Origin: Candidatus Heimdallarchaeota archaeon
GTDB lineage: Archaea > Asgardarchaeota > Heimdallarchaeia > Heimdallarchaeales > Heimdallarchaeaceae
Direction of reading: 5' to 3'
NCBI GenBank assembly: GCA_030668825.1
Contig: DAOVET010000049.1
Coordinates: forward strand, 1-17,492
Length of the DNA: 17,492 nt
A program made the position numbers and the translations under genes. Under the pieces are notes generated by a model, which worked only from the letters and a program-made list of their open reading frames with translations, was not told the DNA's origin and searched no databases. Numbering within the stretch: the first letter of the stretch is position 1; each line of letters starts with the position of its first letter. Shown here in pieces: positions 3,345-11,059 of this stretch.

Positions 3345-4655
3345 TTAGTCTGAACTCTCTACGTCAACACAACCTTCTGGTGTTATTGCAAATACAGCTT
3401 CTGATTCTGGTAAATATGGTGAGTCATAAATTCTAATAATTCTCTTCTCGCCTTTGGATTTTCTTAAATAGAATCTAGTTATAGCCCAGTGACCAAGGAT
3501 ATTTCCACCAATCGCTTGAGTTGGATCACCAAAAAAGGCTGCGGGATTTGACTGAACCTGGTTTGTGATTGCAATAGCTACATTATAGGTGTCTGCTAAC
3601 CTTCCAAGAATCCCTAAATGATGGTTGATCGTTTGTTGTCTCTCAGCAAGAGTTCCTCTTCCCGCATATTCTGCTCTAAAATGAGCTGTAGCAGAATCAA
3701 GAGCAACAAGCCCATATTCATCTTTGTGGTTATAAAACAATTCAAGTAATCTTTCTGCTAGAGTCATTTGATGATCTGAGTTATACGCTCTTGCGTAAGT
3801 TATGTCCCTAAGAACATCCTCAAAATTCTTCTCCCAACCTAAATCATTTTGTAATTTACCATGAATTGCTTTAATTCTACTAGGAGAAAATGTTCCCTCA
3901 GTATCTATAAATACAGCTTTCTTTCCAACTCCTCCTAATTCTGGTGGAAGTTGAACAGTTACACAAAGCTGGTGACATAATTGTGATTTTCCAGAGCGGA
4001 AAGGTCCAAAAAGTTCTATAGTCTCTCCAAGCCTTACTCCAGCAACATCTAATTCCTCAATAGTGGTTAACGCATCTAATGCTTTAATTCCATAAGAAAA
4101 AGCTGGAGATCCCTTCTGTTTTTCCATTATTTCAAAGGCGTTAATAAACTCAATTCCTCCACGTACCTCAGTAAGAGATTGCTTGTATTTTTTTGCAGCG
4201 CTTTCTGTAATCCCATACTTCTCTTCTAATTCTCTTATAGGAGTTGTTTCAAGAAGATAAACGTTTAATCCCTTCTCTCTTAACATATCTGCAGTAGTTT
4301 TCCCTACCCCTGGTAAATCTTCTAAACCGATTTCTTCTTTGAAAAATCTATACTTTGGTACTATAGAACTTATTTCCAACCTAATTTTCTTCGCAATTGC
4401 TCTTTGAATCCCCATTGTTTGTAATTCAATGAGTCTTGTTGTCATTAATCCCTCAATAGTTGTGATTTCATTCTCTATTAAAATTTCCAGGGTTTTTTTT
4501 CCTAAACCTGGAACATCCTTAAGTTTAAGCTCAACATCTACTTTTTTCTTCTTTGAATTCTCTTGTTCTTCTATCTCAATTAGATGTTCTTCGTATTGTT
4601 CTCCAATTTCCTTTGAATCAGGCTTAGTGGTTTCTTCCTGTGTTTCTTTGCTCAT
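3345..4655 (-). CDS. radA: DNA repair and recombination protein RadA (Rad51 family) with duplicated N-terminal HhH domain
   Basis: Walker A GPFRSGKSQ, FIDTEGTF, ARAYNSDHQ, Walker B VALDS, FRAEYAGRGTLAERQQ, TNQV, GGNILGH and FxxA motif FINA. Start placed at ATG 4655 (MSKETQ) rather than 4712 because a TATA box lies at 4693-4700. Confidence 0.95.
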   Translation of the reverse strand: MSKETQEETTKPDSKEIGEQYEEHLIEIEEQENSKKKKVDVELKLKDVPGLGKKTLEILIENEITTIEGLMTTRLIELQTMGIQRAIAKKIRLEISSIVPKYRFFKEEIGLEDLPGVGKTTADMLREKGLNVYLLETTPIRELEEKYGITESAAKKYKQSLTEVRGGIEFINAFEIMEKQKGSPAFSYGIKALDALTTIEELDVAGVRLGETIELFGPFRSGKSQLCHQLCVTVQLPPELGGVGKKAVFIDTEGTFSPSRIKAIHGKLQNDLGWEKNFEDVLRDITYARAYNSDHQMTLAERLLELFYNHKDEYGLVALDSATAHFRAEYAGRGTLAERQQTINHHLGILGRLADTYNVAIAITNQVQSNPAAFFGDPTQAIGGNILGHWAITRFYLRKSKGEKRIIRIYDSPYLPESEAVFAITPEGCVDVESSD

Positions 4656-4692
4656 ATTATGCACCACTGCTATTACTCCGAAGAGGTTAGAG

Positions 4693-4700
4693 TATTTAAA
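4693..4700 (-). promoter_or_regulatory. Probable TATA box of radA
   Basis: TTTAAATA on the minus strand about 38 nt upstream of ATG 4655. Confidence 0.5.
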
Positions 4701-4758
4701 GATAATACTCATTTTACACTTACTATTCCTTAAATTTAACTTCTTCGAAGGGAGACCG

Positions 4759-4899
4759 TATTTTGAAACACAAATCTTCTCTATCCATCAACAAGAACAC
4801 ACGACTCAAGAAGACAAACTCTTAGAAGACATGATCGCTCTGGTCACCTCTTTTGCAGGAAGGCTACACAGACAACGGAGAGGAAAAGCACCGCCATAA
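4759..4899 (+). pseudogene. tnpA: IS607 tnpA (serine recombinase) C-terminal fragment
   Basis: YFETQIFSIHQQEHTTQEDKLLEDMIALVTSFAGRLHRQRRGKAPP* matches the IS607 TnpA C-terminal helix (E-L-x-EDL-x-x-I-x-TSF-x-GRLY-x-x-R). No start, HTH or catalytic domain upstream. Confidence 0.85.
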
Positions 4900-4917
4900 A
4901 AAAAGGATTTTATCGAG

Positions 4918-4925
4918 TTTAAATA
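4918..4925 (+). promoter_or_regulatory. TATA box of tnpB copy 1
   Basis: AGTTTAAATAGC about 30 nt before the TTG start, conserved in copy 2. Confidence 0.65.
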
Positions 4926-4955
4926 GCATTTTGCGGATATACTTAGTGAGATAAA

Positions 4956-6884
4956 TTGGTCACACAAACAGCAACCAAACTACAAACACTCATTCCCACC
5001 ACTTCAAAGGGAGTAATGAGAAGTTATCAAGTAGTGCTCAAATGCGCTGACCAATCCCAACGAGAAGAGATTAACAAGAGGATTAGAACACTAGAAGAAC
5101 AGCAAGATCAGCTGCTCACTCCTCAAGTAATTAAACAAGCTGTGGAAATGTACAGAACCAATCCCAAAGAAGGATTCTTCACCCGCCAACTCTGCAAAGA
5201 AGTAGGCCAAAGCCCGAATATAGCGGAAAGTGCCTTCCATTGGCTGTACATCGCTATCAAAGGCAAGATAGATAAGGAGAAGAAAGCACAAGGGCTCTTT
5301 AATTTTATGTTGAAGAATCCTCAGCAGCTGATAGAATGGCTGATTTTCGGTCGTTCACCTTATACCGAAAGCAGTTTAGAAAACTTTTGGCGACTAAAAA
5401 GAAGATATATTATTAACCTCCTCACCAGTACTAGATTACAAACCGATTCCTATTGGAGAAAAAAAAATAAAACTATCTATACCTCCGATTTTCTACAATT
5501 GAACGCACTTCTTCCAACGTGTTCGCAACCTGAAGTCCTGCAAGCTCTAGATGATGCACTGTTTTACTACAATCATGAATTTTCGCTCATACCACAACTT
5601 ACTAAGAATCAGAAAGCATTTCTGAAGAAACTCAAACTGTTGAAAAAAGAACAATCAACTGTTGTCCCTTTTCTCACTTCATGGATCAATAGCCCTCAAG
5701 ATTCTCGATGGAAAAGTCTCAAAATATTAGCTGAACAACTAGCTACAATTATAGGTAAACCTTCCCGAAAACTCTTTTCAGCAGTTAGACTGATAGTCGT
5801 TTTCACACTCTTTGATCATTACATGCAGAGTGTCCCTCAGTTAGTCAAGTCTCTTCCTATAGCTAATGTTGTTCCCCCACCATTTAAACGTAAAAAGAAA
5901 GGAAGATTGCCAATCAAACTATTAATGAAAAAAAACTATGTTATCACCCGCCAAGGGAATGCTCAAGAATTGACTGACCAAGTAAAGAAACAAGGATGGA
6001 CTGAACTCGGTTTTCCAAGAAAAGGGAAACAAAGGTTAACTGCTCAGGTTCATTTTCCACCAAAAGTAGTAGAGTATATACAAAATGGTGCCCACATCAA
6101 AGTGTTCCAAGTAAACAGTGGACAAGCGCCTAGTTGCAAACCTCGGGTGGATGTAGTACTAGAAGGAACCCATACTTGTTTCCATTCTTCCACCCTTCTC
6201 CACCGCTATCTTGCTAAGATTCCTGCAAAGAAAACTTCCATCCTTGGAGTAGATATTAACCGACTAGGACAACATATGGTAGTGTTTAACACCTCGGTAG
6301 CTCTCCCTCCAGATTTACTAGATTTAGCTGCACACTATGATCATCTTAGTACAAAAGTCCTAGATGAGCTTAACAGAGGTTTACTCCGTAAACGAAAGGA
6401 GTATGATACTCATGAGTGTTGTAAACTCAAGGGTGAACTCAATCGCGTCTATACTCGTCGTCATCGTATCCTTCGAGAGATTACTCGTCTTCTCCCCCAC
6501 TTTCTAGCGGCTGTTTTGGTGAAAAAACAGACAAAAATACTCAAGATTGAACGCTTAACTGCTGATCCCACTGGCACTAAAGGTGCCTTAGCTAAAGCTA
6601 TTTACACCATGCCTGACAGTTTGTTCATTTACAAAAAAGCTGTGTGGTTAGCTTCTTTGGAGTTAGGCTATGATGTGCAGTTAGAAGCTGTTCGTCCTTA
6701 TCACACCAGCACCATTCATTACGGGTGTGGAGGTGTGCTTGCTCGTCAAAAAGGTCAGTATGATGTTGCTCCTTGTAAGAAATGTGGACAACAGGTCAAC
6801 ACTCACTTCAATGCTGCTCATAACATTGCTTCCCTTCCAGGTACCCTCCTTCCTCCCGATTCCTTCCCCTCACCGCACGTGTAG
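4956..6884 (+). CDS. tnpB: Large TnpB-family RNA-guided protein (642 aa), RuvC D-E-H variant
   Basis: RuvC-I ILGVDIN (D433), RuvC-II KIERL (E532), TS-x-x-HYGC...CKKC zinc finger and RuvC-III NTHFNAAHNI (H617 where Asp is canonical); lies downstream of an IS607 tnpA remnant. Confidence 0.9.
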   Translation: MVTQTATKLQTLIPTTSKGVMRSYQVVLKCADQSQREEINKRIRTLEEQQDQLLTPQVIKQAVEMYRTNPKEGFFTRQLCKEVGQSPNIAESAFHWLYIAIKGKIDKEKKAQGLFNFMLKNPQQLIEWLIFGRSPYTESSLENFWRLKRRYIINLLTSTRLQTDSYWRKKNKTIYTSDFLQLNALLPTCSQPEVLQALDDALFYYNHEFSLIPQLTKNQKAFLKKLKLLKKEQSTVVPFLTSWINSPQDSRWKSLKILAEQLATIIGKPSRKLFSAVRLIVVFTLFDHYMQSVPQLVKSLPIANVVPPPFKRKKKGRLPIKLLMKKNYVITRQGNAQELTDQVKKQGWTELGFPRKGKQRLTAQVHFPPKVVEYIQNGAHIKVFQVNSGQAPSCKPRVDVVLEGTHTCFHSSTLLHRYLAKIPAKKTSILGVDINRLGQHMVVFNTSVALPPDLLDLAAHYDHLSTKVLDELNRGLLRKRKEYDTHECCKLKGELNRVYTRRHRILREITRLLPHFLAAVLVKKQTKILKIERLTADPTGTKGALAKAIYTMPDSLFIYKKAVWLASLELGYDVQLEAVRPYHTSTIHYGCGGVLARQKGQYDVAPCKKCGQQVNTHFNAAHNIASLPGTLLPPDSFPSPHV

Positions 6885-6967
6885 GGGACCCACTCAAACG
6901 ACGGTTAGACGCCTTTTGGCAAGTTTAACCAAGTTTCATAACGTGTGTATTTTGAAAGTAATGAACT
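6865..6967 (+). ncRNA. Predicted omega-RNA (reRNA) 3' scaffold plus guide, copy 1; 5' end unknown and probably inside tnpB
   Basis: Hairpin 6865-6888 with loop CGCAC, hairpin 6903-6930, terminal GTGTG 6943-6947 complementary to the loop; predicted guide starts at 6948 (TATTTTGAAAGTAATGAACT). Confidence 0.75.
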
Positions 6968-7007
6968 GATTAAATGAACTGGTTTTTTATCGAGAAAATT
7001 ACTTTTT

Positions 7008-7517
7008 TTAGAAATCTATCCCTTTTCTTGCTTCAATACCCTTGGTGTAGGGATGTTTAATTTCTTTAACATCAATGATTGTATCAGCTTTTGATTTTAG
7101 TCCTTCTGGAAATTTTCTTCCAGTCAAGATAATCTCATCACTAACATAGGGAAAGATTCCCTTCAATTGATCCCAAGAAATTAATCCAAATGAGAGAGCA
7201 ATTCCTGCTTCATCCAAAAGAAGTATCTCAACTTGAGCTTTCTTTAGTTCTTTTTCTAGAACACTGATACCATTGTTTATCAAAGCTATATATTCATCTT
7301 TTTGATCCTTCGATTGATAAAACCTATCTTTCCCAAACGTAAACCACCTTACATTATCCTTATCCTTAAAAAAATTACATTCTCCACAGTTTTTACCAGT
7401 TTTTAGGAATTGAGCTACTAATATAGATTTTCCTTCTCTTTGCTTTTGAAAAATATGACCTATACCTGTTGTTGTTTTTCCTTTTCCTTCTCCAACTATG
7501 AAGGTAATCTTAACCAT
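7008..7517 (-). CDS. cobO: Cob(I)yrinic acid a,c-diamide adenosyltransferase (CobA/CobO/BtuR)
   Basis: GEGKGKTT P-loop, QFLK, LLDE, LTGR and KHPY...ARKGIDF C-terminus. Start likely ATG 7517 (MVKITF); the ORF track gives 7550. Confidence 0.9.
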   Translation of the reverse strand: MVKITFIVGEGKGKTTTGIGHIFQKQREGKSILVAQFLKTGKNCGECNFFKDKDNVRWFTFGKDRFYQSKDQKDEYIALINNGISVLEKELKKAQVEILLLDEAGIALSFGLISWDQLKGIFPYVSDEIILTGRKFPEGLKSKADTIIDVKEIKHPYTKGIEARKGIDF

Positions 7518-7619
7518 TATCTGAAAAATAGATTTATCTCTTTTAAACATTGACTAAAAGAGTCAGTGTAATCTAAATTAAAACATATTTAGATACACTG
7601 GCTTGGAAAGTTCAAAGAC

Positions 7620-8081
7620 TCAGATTTGTATTTCTTCTTGTTCAAGATTGGTTTCATTGTTTTTACGTTTCTTTTCTTCCTTTTCCCTTATTTGTCTATT
7701 CTTTTCTTCTTCTAAATGTTTTAGCCCTTTGTCTTTCAATTTTCCAACTCCACCACAAACTGGACAAACATCTTTTCTAGCTTCTTTTTTTGGTCCAGCA
7801 TCTACATATCCCGTTCCATAACAATAAGGGCAATTTGTCCCTATAACCTTAGCACCTGATCTTGCATAAATATATGATAATAGTAAAAATAACGCACCTA
7901 ATCCAATAGTGATGAAACCGGCTATTTCTAGTCCTCTTGCATCAATTCCGCTTTCCTCAAAAACAGCAACAGCTTTATCATACATATATAGTCCTACAAT
8001 AAGCAGAATACCACCAAATAGAAAGATGGAATATTGGATAACATAGATTCTTATATTAGAAACTCTTCTTTTCCCTTTCAT
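7620..8081 (-). CDS. Membrane protein with two TM helices and a DnaJ-type zinc finger
   Basis: Two hydrophobic segments, then CPYCYGTG and CPVCGGVG (CxxCxGxG twice) and a charged tail. Confidence 0.75.
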   Translation of the reverse strand: MKGKRRVSNIRIYVIQYSIFLFGGILLIVGLYMYDKAVAVFEESGIDARGLEIAGFITIGLGALFLLLSYIYARSGAKVIGTNCPYCYGTGYVDAGPKKEARKDVCPVCGGVGKLKDKGLKHLEEEKNRQIREKEEKKRKNNETNLEQEEIQI

Positions 8082-8175
8082 TATTGTTTGATTATTTGTT
8101 TAAACGCTGAAAAATTTTGTGCTTATGAAGAGAATGAATAAAGAAGAAATTACCAGAATCTCTATCTGGTTCTTC

Positions 8176-8727
8176 TTATCTTCCTGCTCGTTTCAAAGTT
8201 TCATTTTTTATTGCATTTCCTAGAAGAGTTTTAACTAATCCCCCTACTCCTTCTCCAGTTAATGCAGATGTTTCAAGATATCTACAGCCTAGTTTTCTAG
8301 ATATTCTTTTTGCATCTTCTCTTAAAACTTCACGTTTTGCATCAGTTTTATTACCAACAATTGTAATATCTAAATCAAGATTTTGTTGTCTAAGTTCCCT
8401 AATCCAGTTTGCACACTCTTTGAATGATTCTCTCCTAGATACATCAAAAATAATTGCTGCAGCATTGGTTCCTGAATAAAGAAGATTCCTGACTACTCCA
8501 AATCTTTGTTGTCCTGCCATATCGTAAAACAGTGCTACTGCTTTTCCTTTGCCTGTTTTAAATGAATAAGTGTGGAATTCAGCTCCTATAGTTGGCTTAT
8601 AATGTTTTAGAAAAATATTTTCTGTTATTCTTTTGCAAATTGTTGTTTTTCCCGATCTACCAGGACCACATATGGCTAACTTGTAAATATCGTAATCTCG
8701 AAATTTAACTTCCACTTTAGAATTCAT
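8176..8727 (-). CDS. Rab/Ras-superfamily small GTPase
   Basis: G1 GPGRSGKT, G2 PTIG, G3 DMAGQQRF, G4 NKTD, G5 ETSAL; no C-terminal prenylation Cys. Confidence 0.93.
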   Translation of the reverse strand: MNSKVEVKFRDYDIYKLAICGPGRSGKTTICKRITENIFLKHYKPTIGAEFHTYSFKTGKGKAVALFYDMAGQQRFGVVRNLLYSGTNAAAIIFDVSRRESFKECANWIRELRQQNLDLDITIVGNKTDAKREVLREDAKRISRKLGCRYLETSALTGEGVGGLVKTLLGNAIKNETLKRAGR

Positions 8728-8764
8728 GCAGTTAGCACCAAGATAAACCTCTAAAAAATTAATA

Positions 8765-8866
8765 AAAGACGATGTAATACTAAGCGCACATCATGAAACT
8801 TGGTTAAACTTGCCAAAGGCTTTTTAACCGTCGTTTAGGTGGATCCCCTCATGTGCGATGAGGGGA
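8765..8866 (-). ncRNA. Predicted omega-RNA 3' scaffold plus guide, copy 2
   Basis: Perfect 9-bp hairpin TCCCCTCAT-CGCAC-ATGAGGGGA (8866-8844), hairpin 8829-8802, terminal GTGCG (8789-8785) complementary to the loop; predicted guide starts at 8784 (CTTAGTATTACATCGTCTTT). Confidence 0.78.
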
Positions 8867-10778
8867 AAGGATCAGAAGGAAGGAGGAAACCTTGGAGGGA
8901 TGCAATATTTTGAGCAGCATTTTTATGAGTGTTGACACGTTGACCACACTTATTACAAGGGGCAACATCATATTGACCTTTTTGGCGAATAAGTGAACCA
9001 CCACACCTATAATGAATTGAGCTAGTATGATAGGAAGGGACTGCTTCTAATTTTATATCATAACCTAACTCTAGTGAAGCTAACCACACAGCTTTCTTAT
9101 AGATGAACAAACTATCAGGCATGGTGTTAATAGCTCTAGCCAAAGCACCTCTGGTACCAGTGGGATCAGCAGTTAGGCGTTCAATTTTTAACACTTTACA
9201 TTTATTTTTCACCAACACTGCTGCTAGAAAGTGAGGAAGGAGACGGGTAATCTCACGCATGATTCTACTGCGACGAGAATAAACCCGATTGAGTTCACCC
9301 TTGAGTTTACAACTTCCCTGAGTATTATACTCTTTCCGTTTTCTGAGATATCCTCTGTTAAGTTCTCTCAGCACCTTTGTACTGAGATGATTATAGTGAT
9401 TTGCTAATTCTAATAAATCTAGAGGGAGAAAGATTGGAACATTAAATGTCACCATATGTACTCCTAAGCGGTTAATATCTAGTCCTAGAATTGACATTTT
9501 CCTCTTTGCAGGAATATTCGTAAGATAGCGATTAAGAAGCTTAGAAGAATGAAAACAATCCAAAGTTCCCTCAAGAACCACATCTACCCTAGGTTTATAA
9601 TGAGGTGCTTTACCACTGCTTACTTGAAAGATTTTAATATTTGTTCCAGTGTTAATATACTCTAATATTTTTGGTGGAAAGTGAACCTGAGCAGTTAGTC
9701 GCTGTTTTCCCATTCTTGGAAAACCCAGTTCAGTCCAGCTTTGTTTTCTTACTTGTTTTGTCAAATCTTTTGCATTCCCTTGACGGGCTATTACATAGTT
9801 TTTTTTCATTAATAGTTTGATTGGCAATCTTCCTTTCTTTTTACGTTTAAATGGTGGGGGAACAACATTAGCTATAGGGAGAGCCTTAACTAACTGAGGG
9901 ACACTCTGCATATAATGATCAAAGAGTGTGAAAACGACTATCTGCCTAACTGCTGAAAAGAGTTTTCGGGAAGGTTTACCTATGATTGTAGCTAATTGTT
10001 CTGCGAGTTCTTTGAGACTTTTCCATCGAGAAGGTTGAGGACTATTGATCCACGAGGTGAGAAAAGGTATTACAGTATTCTGTTCCTTCTTCAAGAGTTG
10101 GAGTTTATTTAACAATGCTTGCTGATTCTTTGTCAGTTGTGTGAGAATTGAGAATTGATTCTGTTGATAGAACAACACATCATCTAGAGCTTGAAGAACA
10201 TCAGATTGTGAGTATGTTGGAAGGAGAGAGTTGAATTGATGGAAGTTAATGAAATAGCTGTTTTTGTGTTTTTTTCTCCAATAAGAATCGATTTGAGTTC
10301 TCGTACTGGTGAGGAGGTTAATAATATATCTTCTTCTTAGTCTCCAATACTTTTCCAAACTTCTCTCAGTATAAGGTGATCGACCAAAAATTATCCATTC
10401 CACTAACTGTTGAGGATTTTTTTGAATGAACTCTAGTAATCCATGAACTTTCTTTTCCTTGTCCATCTTGCCTTTGATGGCGATATATAACCAATGGAAA
10501 GCACTTTGTGCAATGTTGGGGCTTTTTCCCACAATTTTGCAGAGTTGACTGGTAAAGAATCTTTCTTTCGGATTATTTCTGTACAATTCCACAGCTTGTT
10601 TAATCACTTGAGGAGTAAGTAATTGATGTTGTTGATATTCTAGATCTCTTATCCTCTGGTTTATTTCTTCTCGTTGGGATTGATCTACACACTTCAGCAC
10701 CACTTGATAGCTTCTCATCACTCCTTTAGAACTAGAGGGACGAAGAGCTTGTTGCTTGGTTGCTGTTTGCGTGACCAT
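8835..10778 (-). CDS. tnpB: Large TnpB-family RNA-guided protein (647 aa), RuvC D-E-H variant
   Basis: ILGLDIN, KIERL, HYRC...CNKC and NTHKNAAQNI (H618); colinear paralogue of 4956..6884, roughly 80% identical by eye. Confidence 0.9.
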   Translation of the reverse strand: MVTQTATKQQALRPSSSKGVMRSYQVVLKCVDQSQREEINQRIRDLEYQQHQLLTPQVIKQAVELYRNNPKERFFTSQLCKIVGKSPNIAQSAFHWLYIAIKGKMDKEKKVHGLLEFIQKNPQQLVEWIIFGRSPYTERSLEKYWRLRRRYIINLLTSTRTQIDSYWRKKHKNSYFINFHQFNSLLPTYSQSDVLQALDDVLFYQQNQFSILTQLTKNQQALLNKLQLLKKEQNTVIPFLTSWINSPQPSRWKSLKELAEQLATIIGKPSRKLFSAVRQIVVFTLFDHYMQSVPQLVKALPIANVVPPPFKRKKKGRLPIKLLMKKNYVIARQGNAKDLTKQVRKQSWTELGFPRMGKQRLTAQVHFPPKILEYINTGTNIKIFQVSSGKAPHYKPRVDVVLEGTLDCFHSSKLLNRYLTNIPAKRKMSILGLDINRLGVHMVTFNVPIFLPLDLLELANHYNHLSTKVLRELNRGYLRKRKEYNTQGSCKLKGELNRVYSRRSRIMREITRLLPHFLAAVLVKNKCKVLKIERLTADPTGTRGALARAINTMPDSLFIYKKAVWLASLELGYDIKLEAVPSYHTSSIHYRCGGSLIRQKGQYDVAPCNKCGQRVNTHKNAAQNIASLQGFLLPSDPFPSSHMRGST

Positions 10779-10807
10779 TCTTTCTCATTATCTTATCCAC
10801 AAAAAGC

Positions 10808-10815
10808 TATTTAAA
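10808..10815 (-). promoter_or_regulatory. TATA box of tnpB copy 2
   Basis: AGTTTAAATAGC on the minus strand about 30 nt before ATG 10778, same core as copy 1. Confidence 0.65.
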
Positions 10816-10826
10816 CTTGGTAAAAA

Positions 10827-10937
10827 TCAGTTCTTTGAATGTGTTTTTCCTCTTCTCTGTCTTTTTGTTCTTACTGCGAACGTATCCTATGATTACTTTA
10901 GTCTAATGGTTATCTTCTTCCTCTCACTTATTTTTTG
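10827..10937 (-). pseudogene. tnpA: Highly degraded IS607 tnpA remnant
   Basis: Minus strand reads TKVIIGYVR, +1 frameshift, VRTKRQ (compare the serine recombinase motif IGYARVSTxxQ), joined directly to RRGKTHSKN* (compare copy 1 RQRRGKAPP*). Confidence 0.65.
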
Positions 10938-11059
10938 TACTAAGCGGTTACTTGAAACCATATGTTAATACAATTGTGAGAACATAACTAGGATAATTAT
11001 GCTTTATCAGCCATATTTCTTGCTGAATTCTTAAATAATAATGCTGAGTAAGTTGATGT

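Follow-up and report, generated by a model that had tools for sequence, protein, structure and literature searches.

Histidine at the third RuvC catalytic position in an IS607-linked TnpB family of Heimdall-group Asgard archaea

Six large branches of TnpB with an altered RuvC-III motif have been described (Altae-Tran et al. 2023, PNAS, PMC10691335), and that paper gives as the hallmark of one of them, RIIIr-4, the replacement of the RuvC-III aspartate with histidine, together with the lack of a C4 zinc finger, scored as "the complete 4 cysteine motif". The same paper places archaeal MazE/RHH-associated TnpBs in RIIIr-4 and predicts the branch to be active on the basis of conservation; a further archaeal branch, RIIIr-6, and Asgard groups linked to Cas1 are described there as well. 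A RuvC-III Asp-to-His change combined with an incomplete C4 finger is already in print as a clade trait. A screen of 59 orthologues from five major clades, including RIII-r4, found 27 to be active (Nety et al. 2023, PMC10278001). Here we describe two tnpB paralogues with both of these features from a 17,492-nucleotide (nt) stretch of the genome of a low-GC Asgard archaeon (contig DAOVET010000049.1 of assembly GCA_030668825.1), this whole stretch being referred to below as the window. Our literature searches found no description of this Heimdall TnpB family. We think it fairly probable that the two genes encode a transposon-borne, RNA-guided TnpB-type nuclease of IS607 elements with a D-(N)-E-H active site, one that has proliferated in Heimdall-group Asgard archaea. 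The genes and the residues of copy 1 on which this reading turns are as follows.

4956-6884, + strand: tnpB copy 1, 642 amino acids (aa), TTG start
8835-10778, - strand: tnpB copy 2, 647 aa, ATG start
6252-6254, + strand: codon of copy 1 residue D433
6549-6551, + strand: codon of copy 1 residue E532
6804-6806, + strand: codon of copy 1 residue H617
6717-6785, + strand: zinc ligands H588, C591, C607 and C610 of copy 1

The two proteins are 79% identical (509/643) and depart from the canonical D, E, D triad of RuvC: D433 and E532 are kept, and the third position is H617. The translation of copy 1 reads GVDIN around D433, KIERL around E532 and VNTHFNAAHNI around H617, and the DNA from 6795 reads GTC AAC ACT CAC TTC AAT GCT GCT CAT AAC ATT, with CAC as the codon of residue 617. 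The corresponding RuvC-III motif of copy 2 is VNTHKNAAQNI, with its histidine encoded by CAT at 8927-8925. The zinc finger of copy 1 is H588-x2-C591 ... C607-x2-C610, i.e., an H-C-C-C finger, with the equivalent residues in copy 2. A first-pass annotation of this DNA had claimed that the third Asp is replaced by His in both paralogues while the other two catalytic residues are retained, that the two copies use different codons for this His, and that the first zinc knuckle is HxxC in both. The translations and the DNA readout bear out the first two of these claims, and the translations and the alignment described next bear out the third.

When a profile built from 62 members of the family was compared with all PDB sequences, H617 fell on the catalytic Asp of 'VNADYNAARNIA' in CnCas12f1 (8hr5), the profile segment '...CkkCgqkVNTHanaakNIa' being paired with '...CKKCGYKVNADYNAARNIA' of the same protein. 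Other Cas12f and TnpB chains gave equivalent alignments, with the His on the Asp column and H588 on the first Cys of the finger. Within the family alignment itself, whose 62 sequences range down to 39% identity to copy 1, the invariant positions include D433, N435, R436, E532, S585, H588, C591, R597, D603, C607, C610, H617 and N619. Such a pattern greatly exceeds what chance would produce. Possible substitutes for the missing acidic residue were also considered and rejected. The only acidic residues otherwise invariant in the C-terminal half of the alignment are E494 and D603, and the latter, which lies in the zinc-finger loop, is unlikely to be catalytic because the wider clade has H (12), N (3), E, R or Q in its place. 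The near-invariant D537 was set aside as a compensating residue as well, with S, T, N and others found at this position in cluster representatives.

The histidine extends far beyond the two copies in the window. A word-indexed search retrieved 120 homologues, 9 of them truncated at the site, and all 111 that cover position 617 have His there. A profile search of 1.84 billion cluster representatives (clustered at 50% identity) returned just 326 proteins at E<=0.001, which sets the clade well apart in sequence from ordinary TnpBs; the best 150 of these 326 were analysed, and the representatives counted here and below are drawn from them. Of the 120 representatives that cover position 617, 114 have H, 5 have Q and 1 has D, and the five with Gln keep both D and E. 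All 101 representatives that cover RuvC-I have D433, and all 101 have N435, so that this motif is always D-x-N; at position 532, 105 of 121 have E, 15 have D and 1 has H. In the TNB domain, 108 of 120 keep the zinc-finger Arg at position 597 and 8 have K, and the first zinc ligand is His in 107 of 123 and Cys in the other 16. Clade members come from Heimdall, Thor and Promethearchaeota metagenome-assembled genomes (MAGs), with the homologues of the window copies labelled Candidatus Heimdallarchaeota or Heimdallarchaeaceae, and the most remote members, at 750-1450 aa, have a D-D-H triad and a CCCC finger and belong to Promethearchaeota MAGs where named. Among the relatives there are also very large proteins of about 1180-1780 aa with a C-terminal His-type RuvC module (P0146, P0158, P0162, P0176, P0182, P0187, P0221 and P0223), and the named homologues of P0221 are again from Promethearchaeota MAGs.

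At the nucleotide level, the 46 intact genomic copies in which a script located the motif are evenly divided in their His codon, 23 using CAC and 23 using CAT. The ratio of nonsynonymous to synonymous substitution (dN/dS) between copy 1 and copy 2 is 0.154 (dS 0.85), and its median over 57 random family pairs is 0.146. Because the His is near-fixed across the clade, its codons are split, and dN/dS is about 0.15, these comparisons show that it is an ancient, selected state and not decay. The first-pass annotation had called the His a lineage trait rather than recent decay, and had proposed a survey of its conservation across the clade; the survey and the codon counts agree with that view. The same genome also encodes shorter TnpBs of about 420 aa, in which RuvC-I is D-L-G (D187 and G189 are invariant in their alignment). 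Set against this, the D-x-N of the present clade, taken together with the His, marks a pocket altered at two places and not one. The profile-profile match between the two groups is weak (probability 1.2%) and serves as a motif comparison only, with H617 aligned to Asp at RuvC-III.

The position of H617, 7 residues past C610, raises the possibility that the residue is structural (it might, for instance, act at the neighbouring zinc site as a fifth ligand or in the second shell) and that the nuclease is inactive. That the first finger ligand is itself His in most members fits this idea. The finger already has four ligands, however, and His is retained at 617 in all 16 representatives whose finger is CCCC, so the two histidines do not co-vary. 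H617 also sits at the start of the RuvC-III helix in the predicted structure, exactly on the catalytic Asp column, and we consider a purely structural role very unlikely.

The first-pass annotation had put forward structure prediction and superposition on ISDra2 TnpB or Cas12f as a check, and an AlphaFold2 (AF2) model generated on the family alignment (mean pLDDT 86.7) does match both by Foldseek. There were 59 PDB matches at E<=0.001, the top ones being Cas12f and TnpB chains at probability 1.00: Cas12f (8hr5, 8j3r and 7wju), ISFba1 TnpB (8iaz) and ISDra2 TnpB (8h1j). Judged from the model, the overall WED-REC-RuvC-TNB fold of the TnpB/Cas12 superfamily is unambiguously present. The protein has about 640 aa as against about 400 aa for the TnpB/Cas12f architecture, and the model places the extra length after the first WED strand (residues 20-29) and ahead of the remaining WED domain (from about residue 320). 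This extra segment is all helical and thus an enlarged REC lobe. Curated sequence models gave only weak matches, limited to the C-terminal TNB/RuvC-III piece: 27.9 bits for copy 2 and 25.3 for copy 1 with PF07282 (TNB domain; cut-off 26.3), 23.5 and 25.7 bits with NF040570 (guided_TnpB; cut-off 100), and 19.3 and 12.4 bits with NF038280 (IS607_TnpB; cut-off 350).

Several described systems can be compared with the window family on this basis. Cas12f proteins (8hr5, AsCas12f 8j3r/7wju, Un1Cas12f1 7c7l) are the best matches among solved structures, both by structure and by sequence, and share the same RuvC and zinc-finger (TNB) module; in contrast to them, the window family has no associated CRISPR array, is borne by a transposon, and has His for the third Asp. 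Similar to IS607 elements and the ISFba1 TnpB-reRNA complex (8iaz; Foldseek E 5e-8), the family has a TnpA gene upstream in intact relatives, a structured scaffold running to the right end and, in 19 of 26 loci, a short core at both junctions in place of a long target duplication, but its proteins differ in the D-E-H triad, the D-x-N RuvC-I and a much larger helical lobe. Of the TnpB clades with a rearranged RuvC-III, RIIIr-4 of PMC10691335 is the one it most resembles. The conserved Asp-to-His change (114/120 representatives), the incomplete C4 finger (H first in 107/123) and an archaeal component all correspond, and a weak MazE/AbrB-like match in two distant relatives (P0176 and P0182; PF04014, E 7e-4 and 9e-5) recalls the MazE/RHH-associated members of that branch. 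As for differences, that clade is represented in viruses according to the same paper, whereas relatives of the window family were not found in IMG/VR or phage GenBank, and the length of about 640 aa with IS607 linkage is likewise set down as a difference. A viral origin was considered separately and rejected: 70 pattern matches in IMG/VR yielded none that was confirmed, and tblastn against phage GenBank gave no match. Because the viral representation is not mirrored and the assignment is judged on traits and not on placement in the published tree, membership of the window family in RIIIr-4 is probable rather than proven, with RIIIr-6 or the Asgard groups also possible.

To place the two genes in their mobile-element context, 66 loci from Heimdall MAGs were compared, 47 of them with an intact tnpB. 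Many copies have a gene upstream on the same strand that ends in ...KLVEDMIALVTSFAGRLHRQRRGKAPP, and about 10 of the 47 loci with intact tnpB, when read by eye, have this gene complete or almost complete, with 'GYARVS' coming after a MerR-type helix-turn-helix. The TnpA proteins of two such loci, L026 and L052 (197 aa), score 167.5 and 158.1 bits against NF033518 (IS607 family transposase; cut-off 110) and contain PF00239 Resolvase and PF00376 MerR domains. The serine-recombinase TnpA that characterizes the IS607 family is found in the relatives, and the window holds a 3' relic of it in copy 1 and nothing of it in copy 2. The left end has the consensus flank-N-A-C-(C/T)GT-N5-ACTGA-N6-AAACTTAYCCAATCTTRCC, and a fixed-offset script found the 3 nt after the left-end AC to be the same as the 3 nt after the right-end GTG in 19 of 26 loci. 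This shared core (YGT) appears as CGT/CGT or TGT/TGT and once as CTT/CTT, and 3 of the 7 misses are register errors by eye. Identity of 3 nt at both ends fits a shared crossover core, as is expected for a serine recombinase. By these sequence features, the genes belong to IS607-type elements. This TnpB family was present in all 22 sampled genomes of the genus, in 26 of 28 across the taxonomic family and in 47 of 301 across the phylum, with up to 48 first-look candidates in one genome of the same genus, and the assembly containing the window (90.6% complete) has four intact His-type tnpB genes.

The two elements in the window were delimited as follows.

4760-6947, + strand: copy 1 element, left part deleted, leaving a tnpA 3' relic, tnpB and the 3' scaffold
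4774-4899, + strand: tnpA relic, the last ~40-46 codons of an IS607 serine recombinase (…FETQIFSIHQQ…LLEDMIALVTSFAGRLHRQRRGKAPP*)
4918-4925, + strand: TTTAAATA box, about 38 nt before the tnpB start
8778-10937, - strand: copy 2 element, a 2160-bp tnpA-less unit with left end, tnpB and scaffold; borders uncertain by up to 9 nt

The left border of copy 1 abuts ACCGT at 4755-4759, homology to other copies begins right after GGGAGACCGT (4750-4759), and the canonical left-end motif AAACTTnnCCAATCTTACC was not found upstream of this copy. At the right border, conservation in the family alignment ends after ...CAAGTTTCATAACGTGTG. The tnpA relic matches NF033518 at 4774-4887 (profile positions 149-185) with 21.7 bits, which is under the cut-off, and the same tail ends the L026 and L052 TnpAs. 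A Pfam scan of the open reading frame (ORF) at 4429-4899, within which the relic lies, gave no match; as copy 1 retains just the last ~40-46 tnpA codons, this ORF is spurious beyond the tnpA tail. The TTTAAATA box, kept as GTTTAaATA in 47 upstream regions, is likely an archaeal TATA-type promoter of tnpB, judging from its sequence and position.

For copy 2, an empty site was found in a public sequencing run (X12), where a contig of 315 nt joins 8777 to 10938 and skips the 2160 nt between them. The flanks are 95-97% identical to the window, and 9 letters fit either side of the junction. These correspond to a 9-nt direct repeat, CGCTTAGTA, at 8778-8786 and 10938-10946, of which the empty-site contig has one copy, and the right border given by this contig agrees with position 8785, the boundary that the family alignment gave on its own. 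The empty-site contig with its matching borders therefore makes copy 2 a discrete unit, present in some populations and absent in others. While the 3-nt YGT was common to both ends in 19 of 26 loci in the junction comparison, copy 2 is flanked by the 9-nt repeat. Other copies share about 3 nt, and the extra 6 nt of copy 2 look like the beginning of the left end seen in relatives, L013 among them, so its target may have been a pseudo-left-end site.

Downstream of each tnpB gene, the right end of the element has the following parts.

6840-6947, + strand: 3' scaffold of copy 1 (omegaRNA-like, right end), with hairpin 1 at 6865-6888 across the stop codon and a nested stem at 6896-6936
8785-8892, - strand: 3' scaffold of copy 2, ending ...CAAGTTTCATGATGTGCG
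6948-6967, + strand: candidate copy 1 guide, the flank adjoining the right end

In 47 copies, conservation extends for about 63 nt beyond the stop codon, to ...GGCAAGTTTAACCAAGTTTCATAACGTG(C/T)G, after which similarity is lost abruptly. The last ~110 nt comprise the stop-straddling hairpin and the nested stem, with 20 consensus pairs, 7 of which show a compensatory change in at least one of 44 copies. The single-sequence fold of the copy 1 scaffold has an energy of -28.4 kcal/mol (z = -2.1), and synonymous variation collapses in the last ~15 codons of tnpB. By its sequence features, the 3' region is laid out like a TnpB omegaRNA/reRNA scaffold, in which the guide comes from the flank. As in other TnpB systems, the flank, where conservation drops sharply across the 47 copies, would serve as the guide; the 20 nt past each right end had no second genome match at up to 2 mismatches. 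Rfam and tRNA scans of the window gave no match. A public run labelled RNA-Seq (X20), which was flagged as probably DNA, gave no coverage of 6841-7071, where the scaffold lies, a result with no bearing on expression. The stop codon lies within the first scaffold hairpin (6879-6890, with the same placement in relatives), and copies that read GTG-TAG-GGG end in ...HV, while copies that do not have that T extend by 4-5 codons (...HVRG(P/S)T). Since the stop position is tied to the hairpin, the C-terminal tail seems to be set by the RNA hairpin and not by protein function.

With the elements and their flanks delimited, the window copies can be compared with TldRs, which are reportedly TnpB-like nuclease-dead repressors. 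The first-pass annotation had offered two alternatives, an active D-E-H nuclease and a TldR-like RNA-guided DNA binder, and of these we find the former better supported, as far as activity can be judged from conservation and context, and the latter a poor fit. Like TldRs, the window family is TnpB-derived with an altered RuvC site. Unlike them, it has one of three catalytic positions changed, to a conserved His, and it is multi-copy, transposase-linked and bounded by transposon ends; a non-mobile single locus, a promoter-matching guide and a fixed host neighbour, by which a TldR would be recognized, are not what we observed. It might still be proposed that the window copies in particular are domesticated, TldR-like repressors, stranded without a transposase and kept by the host for gene regulation. 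No IS607 TnpA above the NF033518 cut-off was found in this 90.6%-complete assembly and copy 1 has lost its left end, and the ORFs are nonetheless intact, with a dN/dS of 0.15 at a dS of 0.85 between the copies. MAGs often miss repeated insertion sequence copies, however, which makes the missing TnpA weak evidence of stranded copies. The guides match their own flanks only, the neighbours vary by locus, the family is multi-copy and TnpA-linked in relatives, and copy 2 is polymorphic for presence with exact element borders. The C-terminus of TldRs is reported to be truncated, and here there is no truncation and D433 and E532 are kept. As such, we regard domestication of this kind as highly improbable.

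For the active D-E-H nuclease that we favor, residue identity, conservation, fold, IS607 context, element borders, scaffold and one empty-site allele are observed directly, and the following mechanism can be built on them. The RuvC pocket would consist of D433 (in the D-x-N motif), E532 and H617, beside the H-C-C-C finger. The 3' transcript of the element would give a scaffold-guide RNA, bound by the protein, in which the flank right after the scaffold acts as guide. The ribonucleoprotein would then recognize the joined flanks of an empty donor or target site, i.e., the left-flank motif N-A-C, the YGT core and then the right flank, and would cut this site, with homologous repair from a sister copy restoring the element. 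This amounts to the standard TnpB cycle, the simplest reading, and each of its steps other than the cut has support in the anatomy of the elements. Such cutting of the empty site would favor retention of the element. We infer that the D-E-H site cleaves DNA, perhaps with a changed metal preference, because strong purifying selection holds D, E and H fixed, because the zinc-finger Arg R597 is kept as well, and because the family has proliferated as a transposon. That other RNase H-fold nucleases use a catalytic His, as in the DEDH tetrad of Argonaute and His983 of the Cas9 RuvC domain, points the same way. On sequence grounds, a dead pocket would not be expected to hold three positions fixed across so deep a clade. 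In the literature, conserved RuvC rearrangements have been argued to retain activity (PMC10691335), and one RII-r5 orthologue was shown to be active in the 59-orthologue screen (PMC10278001).

Several points nevertheless weigh against DNA cleavage by these proteins. His is a poorer Mg2+ ligand than Asp, and 5 of 120 representatives have Gln at position 617 while keeping D and E, so that a hydrogen-bonding or structural role would fit equally. No IS607 TnpA above the cut-off was found in the assembly and yet four His-type tnpB genes are intact, so selection may not be purely transposon-linked. The first-pass annotation had also asked whether D-E-H might already be a common, characterized state: it is catalogued in a major TnpB clade (PMC10691335), but our literature searches found no biochemical test of any D-E-H TnpB. 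Although the 59-orthologue screen covered five major clades, the only active rearranged-clade member that the accessible part of its report names is from RII-r5 (PMC10278001).

In a different reading, the pocket serves RNA work alone. TnpB and Cas12c process their own transcript with the RuvC site, and the D-E-H site might likewise process its own guide RNA while the DNA is bound uncut, the complex marking or blocking a target or aiding the site choice of the transposase. Replacement of the third Asp throughout the clade, tolerance of Gln in 5 of 120 representatives and, as far as the available text of PMC10278001 goes, the lack of any reported active orthologue with a rearranged RuvC-III would all be accommodated, and TnpB processing of its own mRNA is described in that same text. 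On the other hand, the conservation at position 597 and the DNA-side architecture fit DNA cleavage equally. The known retention benefit of TnpB is also said to require a DNA break. We treat such a Cas12c-like state, with RNA processed and DNA only bound, as a real alternative to DNA cleavage, if an unlikely one. A further variant, which we find quite unlikely, is a working RuvC center whose chemistry differs from that of D-E-D (perhaps with a Mn2+ or Zn2+ preference, or acting as a nickase or on RNA only), in which case the transposase-less but strongly constrained copies of this genome would be kept because host or element uses them to bind DNA under RNA guidance and not to cut it. If this were true, the Asgard-wide clade would be a natural transposon-borne counterpart of Cas12k or Cas12c.

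Whichever of these readings holds, the window family offers a defined test case for whether a RuvC site with His for Asp cuts DNA, and with which metal, since its proteins are intact, the boundary between scaffold and guide is mapped, a candidate target-adjacent motif is at hand, and an empty site has been observed. If active, the protein would be a compact archaeal nuclease with altered chemistry; if inactive, it would represent a naturally occurring RNA-guided DNA binder still borne by a transposon.

Separately from the His-type family, the same genome has 19 above-cut-off guided_TnpB matches, which are the proteins of about 420 aa mentioned above (loci L072-L081, on G000 contigs C35, C26, C109, C8, C43, C97, C113, C20, C135 and others). 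They have INADVNAA at RuvC-III, Gly at the expected RuvC-II Glu (...IGYN...) and no cysteine finger, and we take them to resemble RIIr-5, a rearranged clade already published. This one genome therefore holds two TnpB lineages, each rearranged in its own way.

A second feature of the tnpB genes concerns their middle, where synonymous variation is suppressed at 5691-5981 (codons ~246-342 of copy 1), as it is in copy 2 and 45 relatives. Normalised entropy there is 0.17-0.45 versus about 0.65-0.73 elsewhere, with long runs of at least 90% DNA identity. This mid-gene region contained no alternative-frame ORF of at least 40 aa and no convincing consensus RNA fold. Its conservation pattern points to a nucleotide-level element inside tnpB.

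The remaining features of the window are host genes between and around the two copies.

7008-7550: CobA/BtuR-type corrinoid adenosyltransferase, between the copies
7620-8081: small membrane protein with CxxC pairs, between the copies
8176-8727: Ras-family GTPase, between the copies
1092-1559, - strand: E2 ubiquitin-conjugating enzyme homologue (PF00179, E 3.5e-34)
3345-4712, - strand: RadA/Rad51 recombinase, 455 aa, with helix-hairpin-helix motifs before the Rad51 domain

The two tnpB copies are inverted relative to each other, with their right ends and presumed guides facing inward (6947-8785) and bracketing the first three of these genes. Their neighbours in the window as a whole include the RadA/Rad51 recombinase, a family-B DNA polymerase, the E2 ubiquitin-conjugating enzyme and the Ras-family GTPase, the last two being of kinds usually found in eukaryotes.

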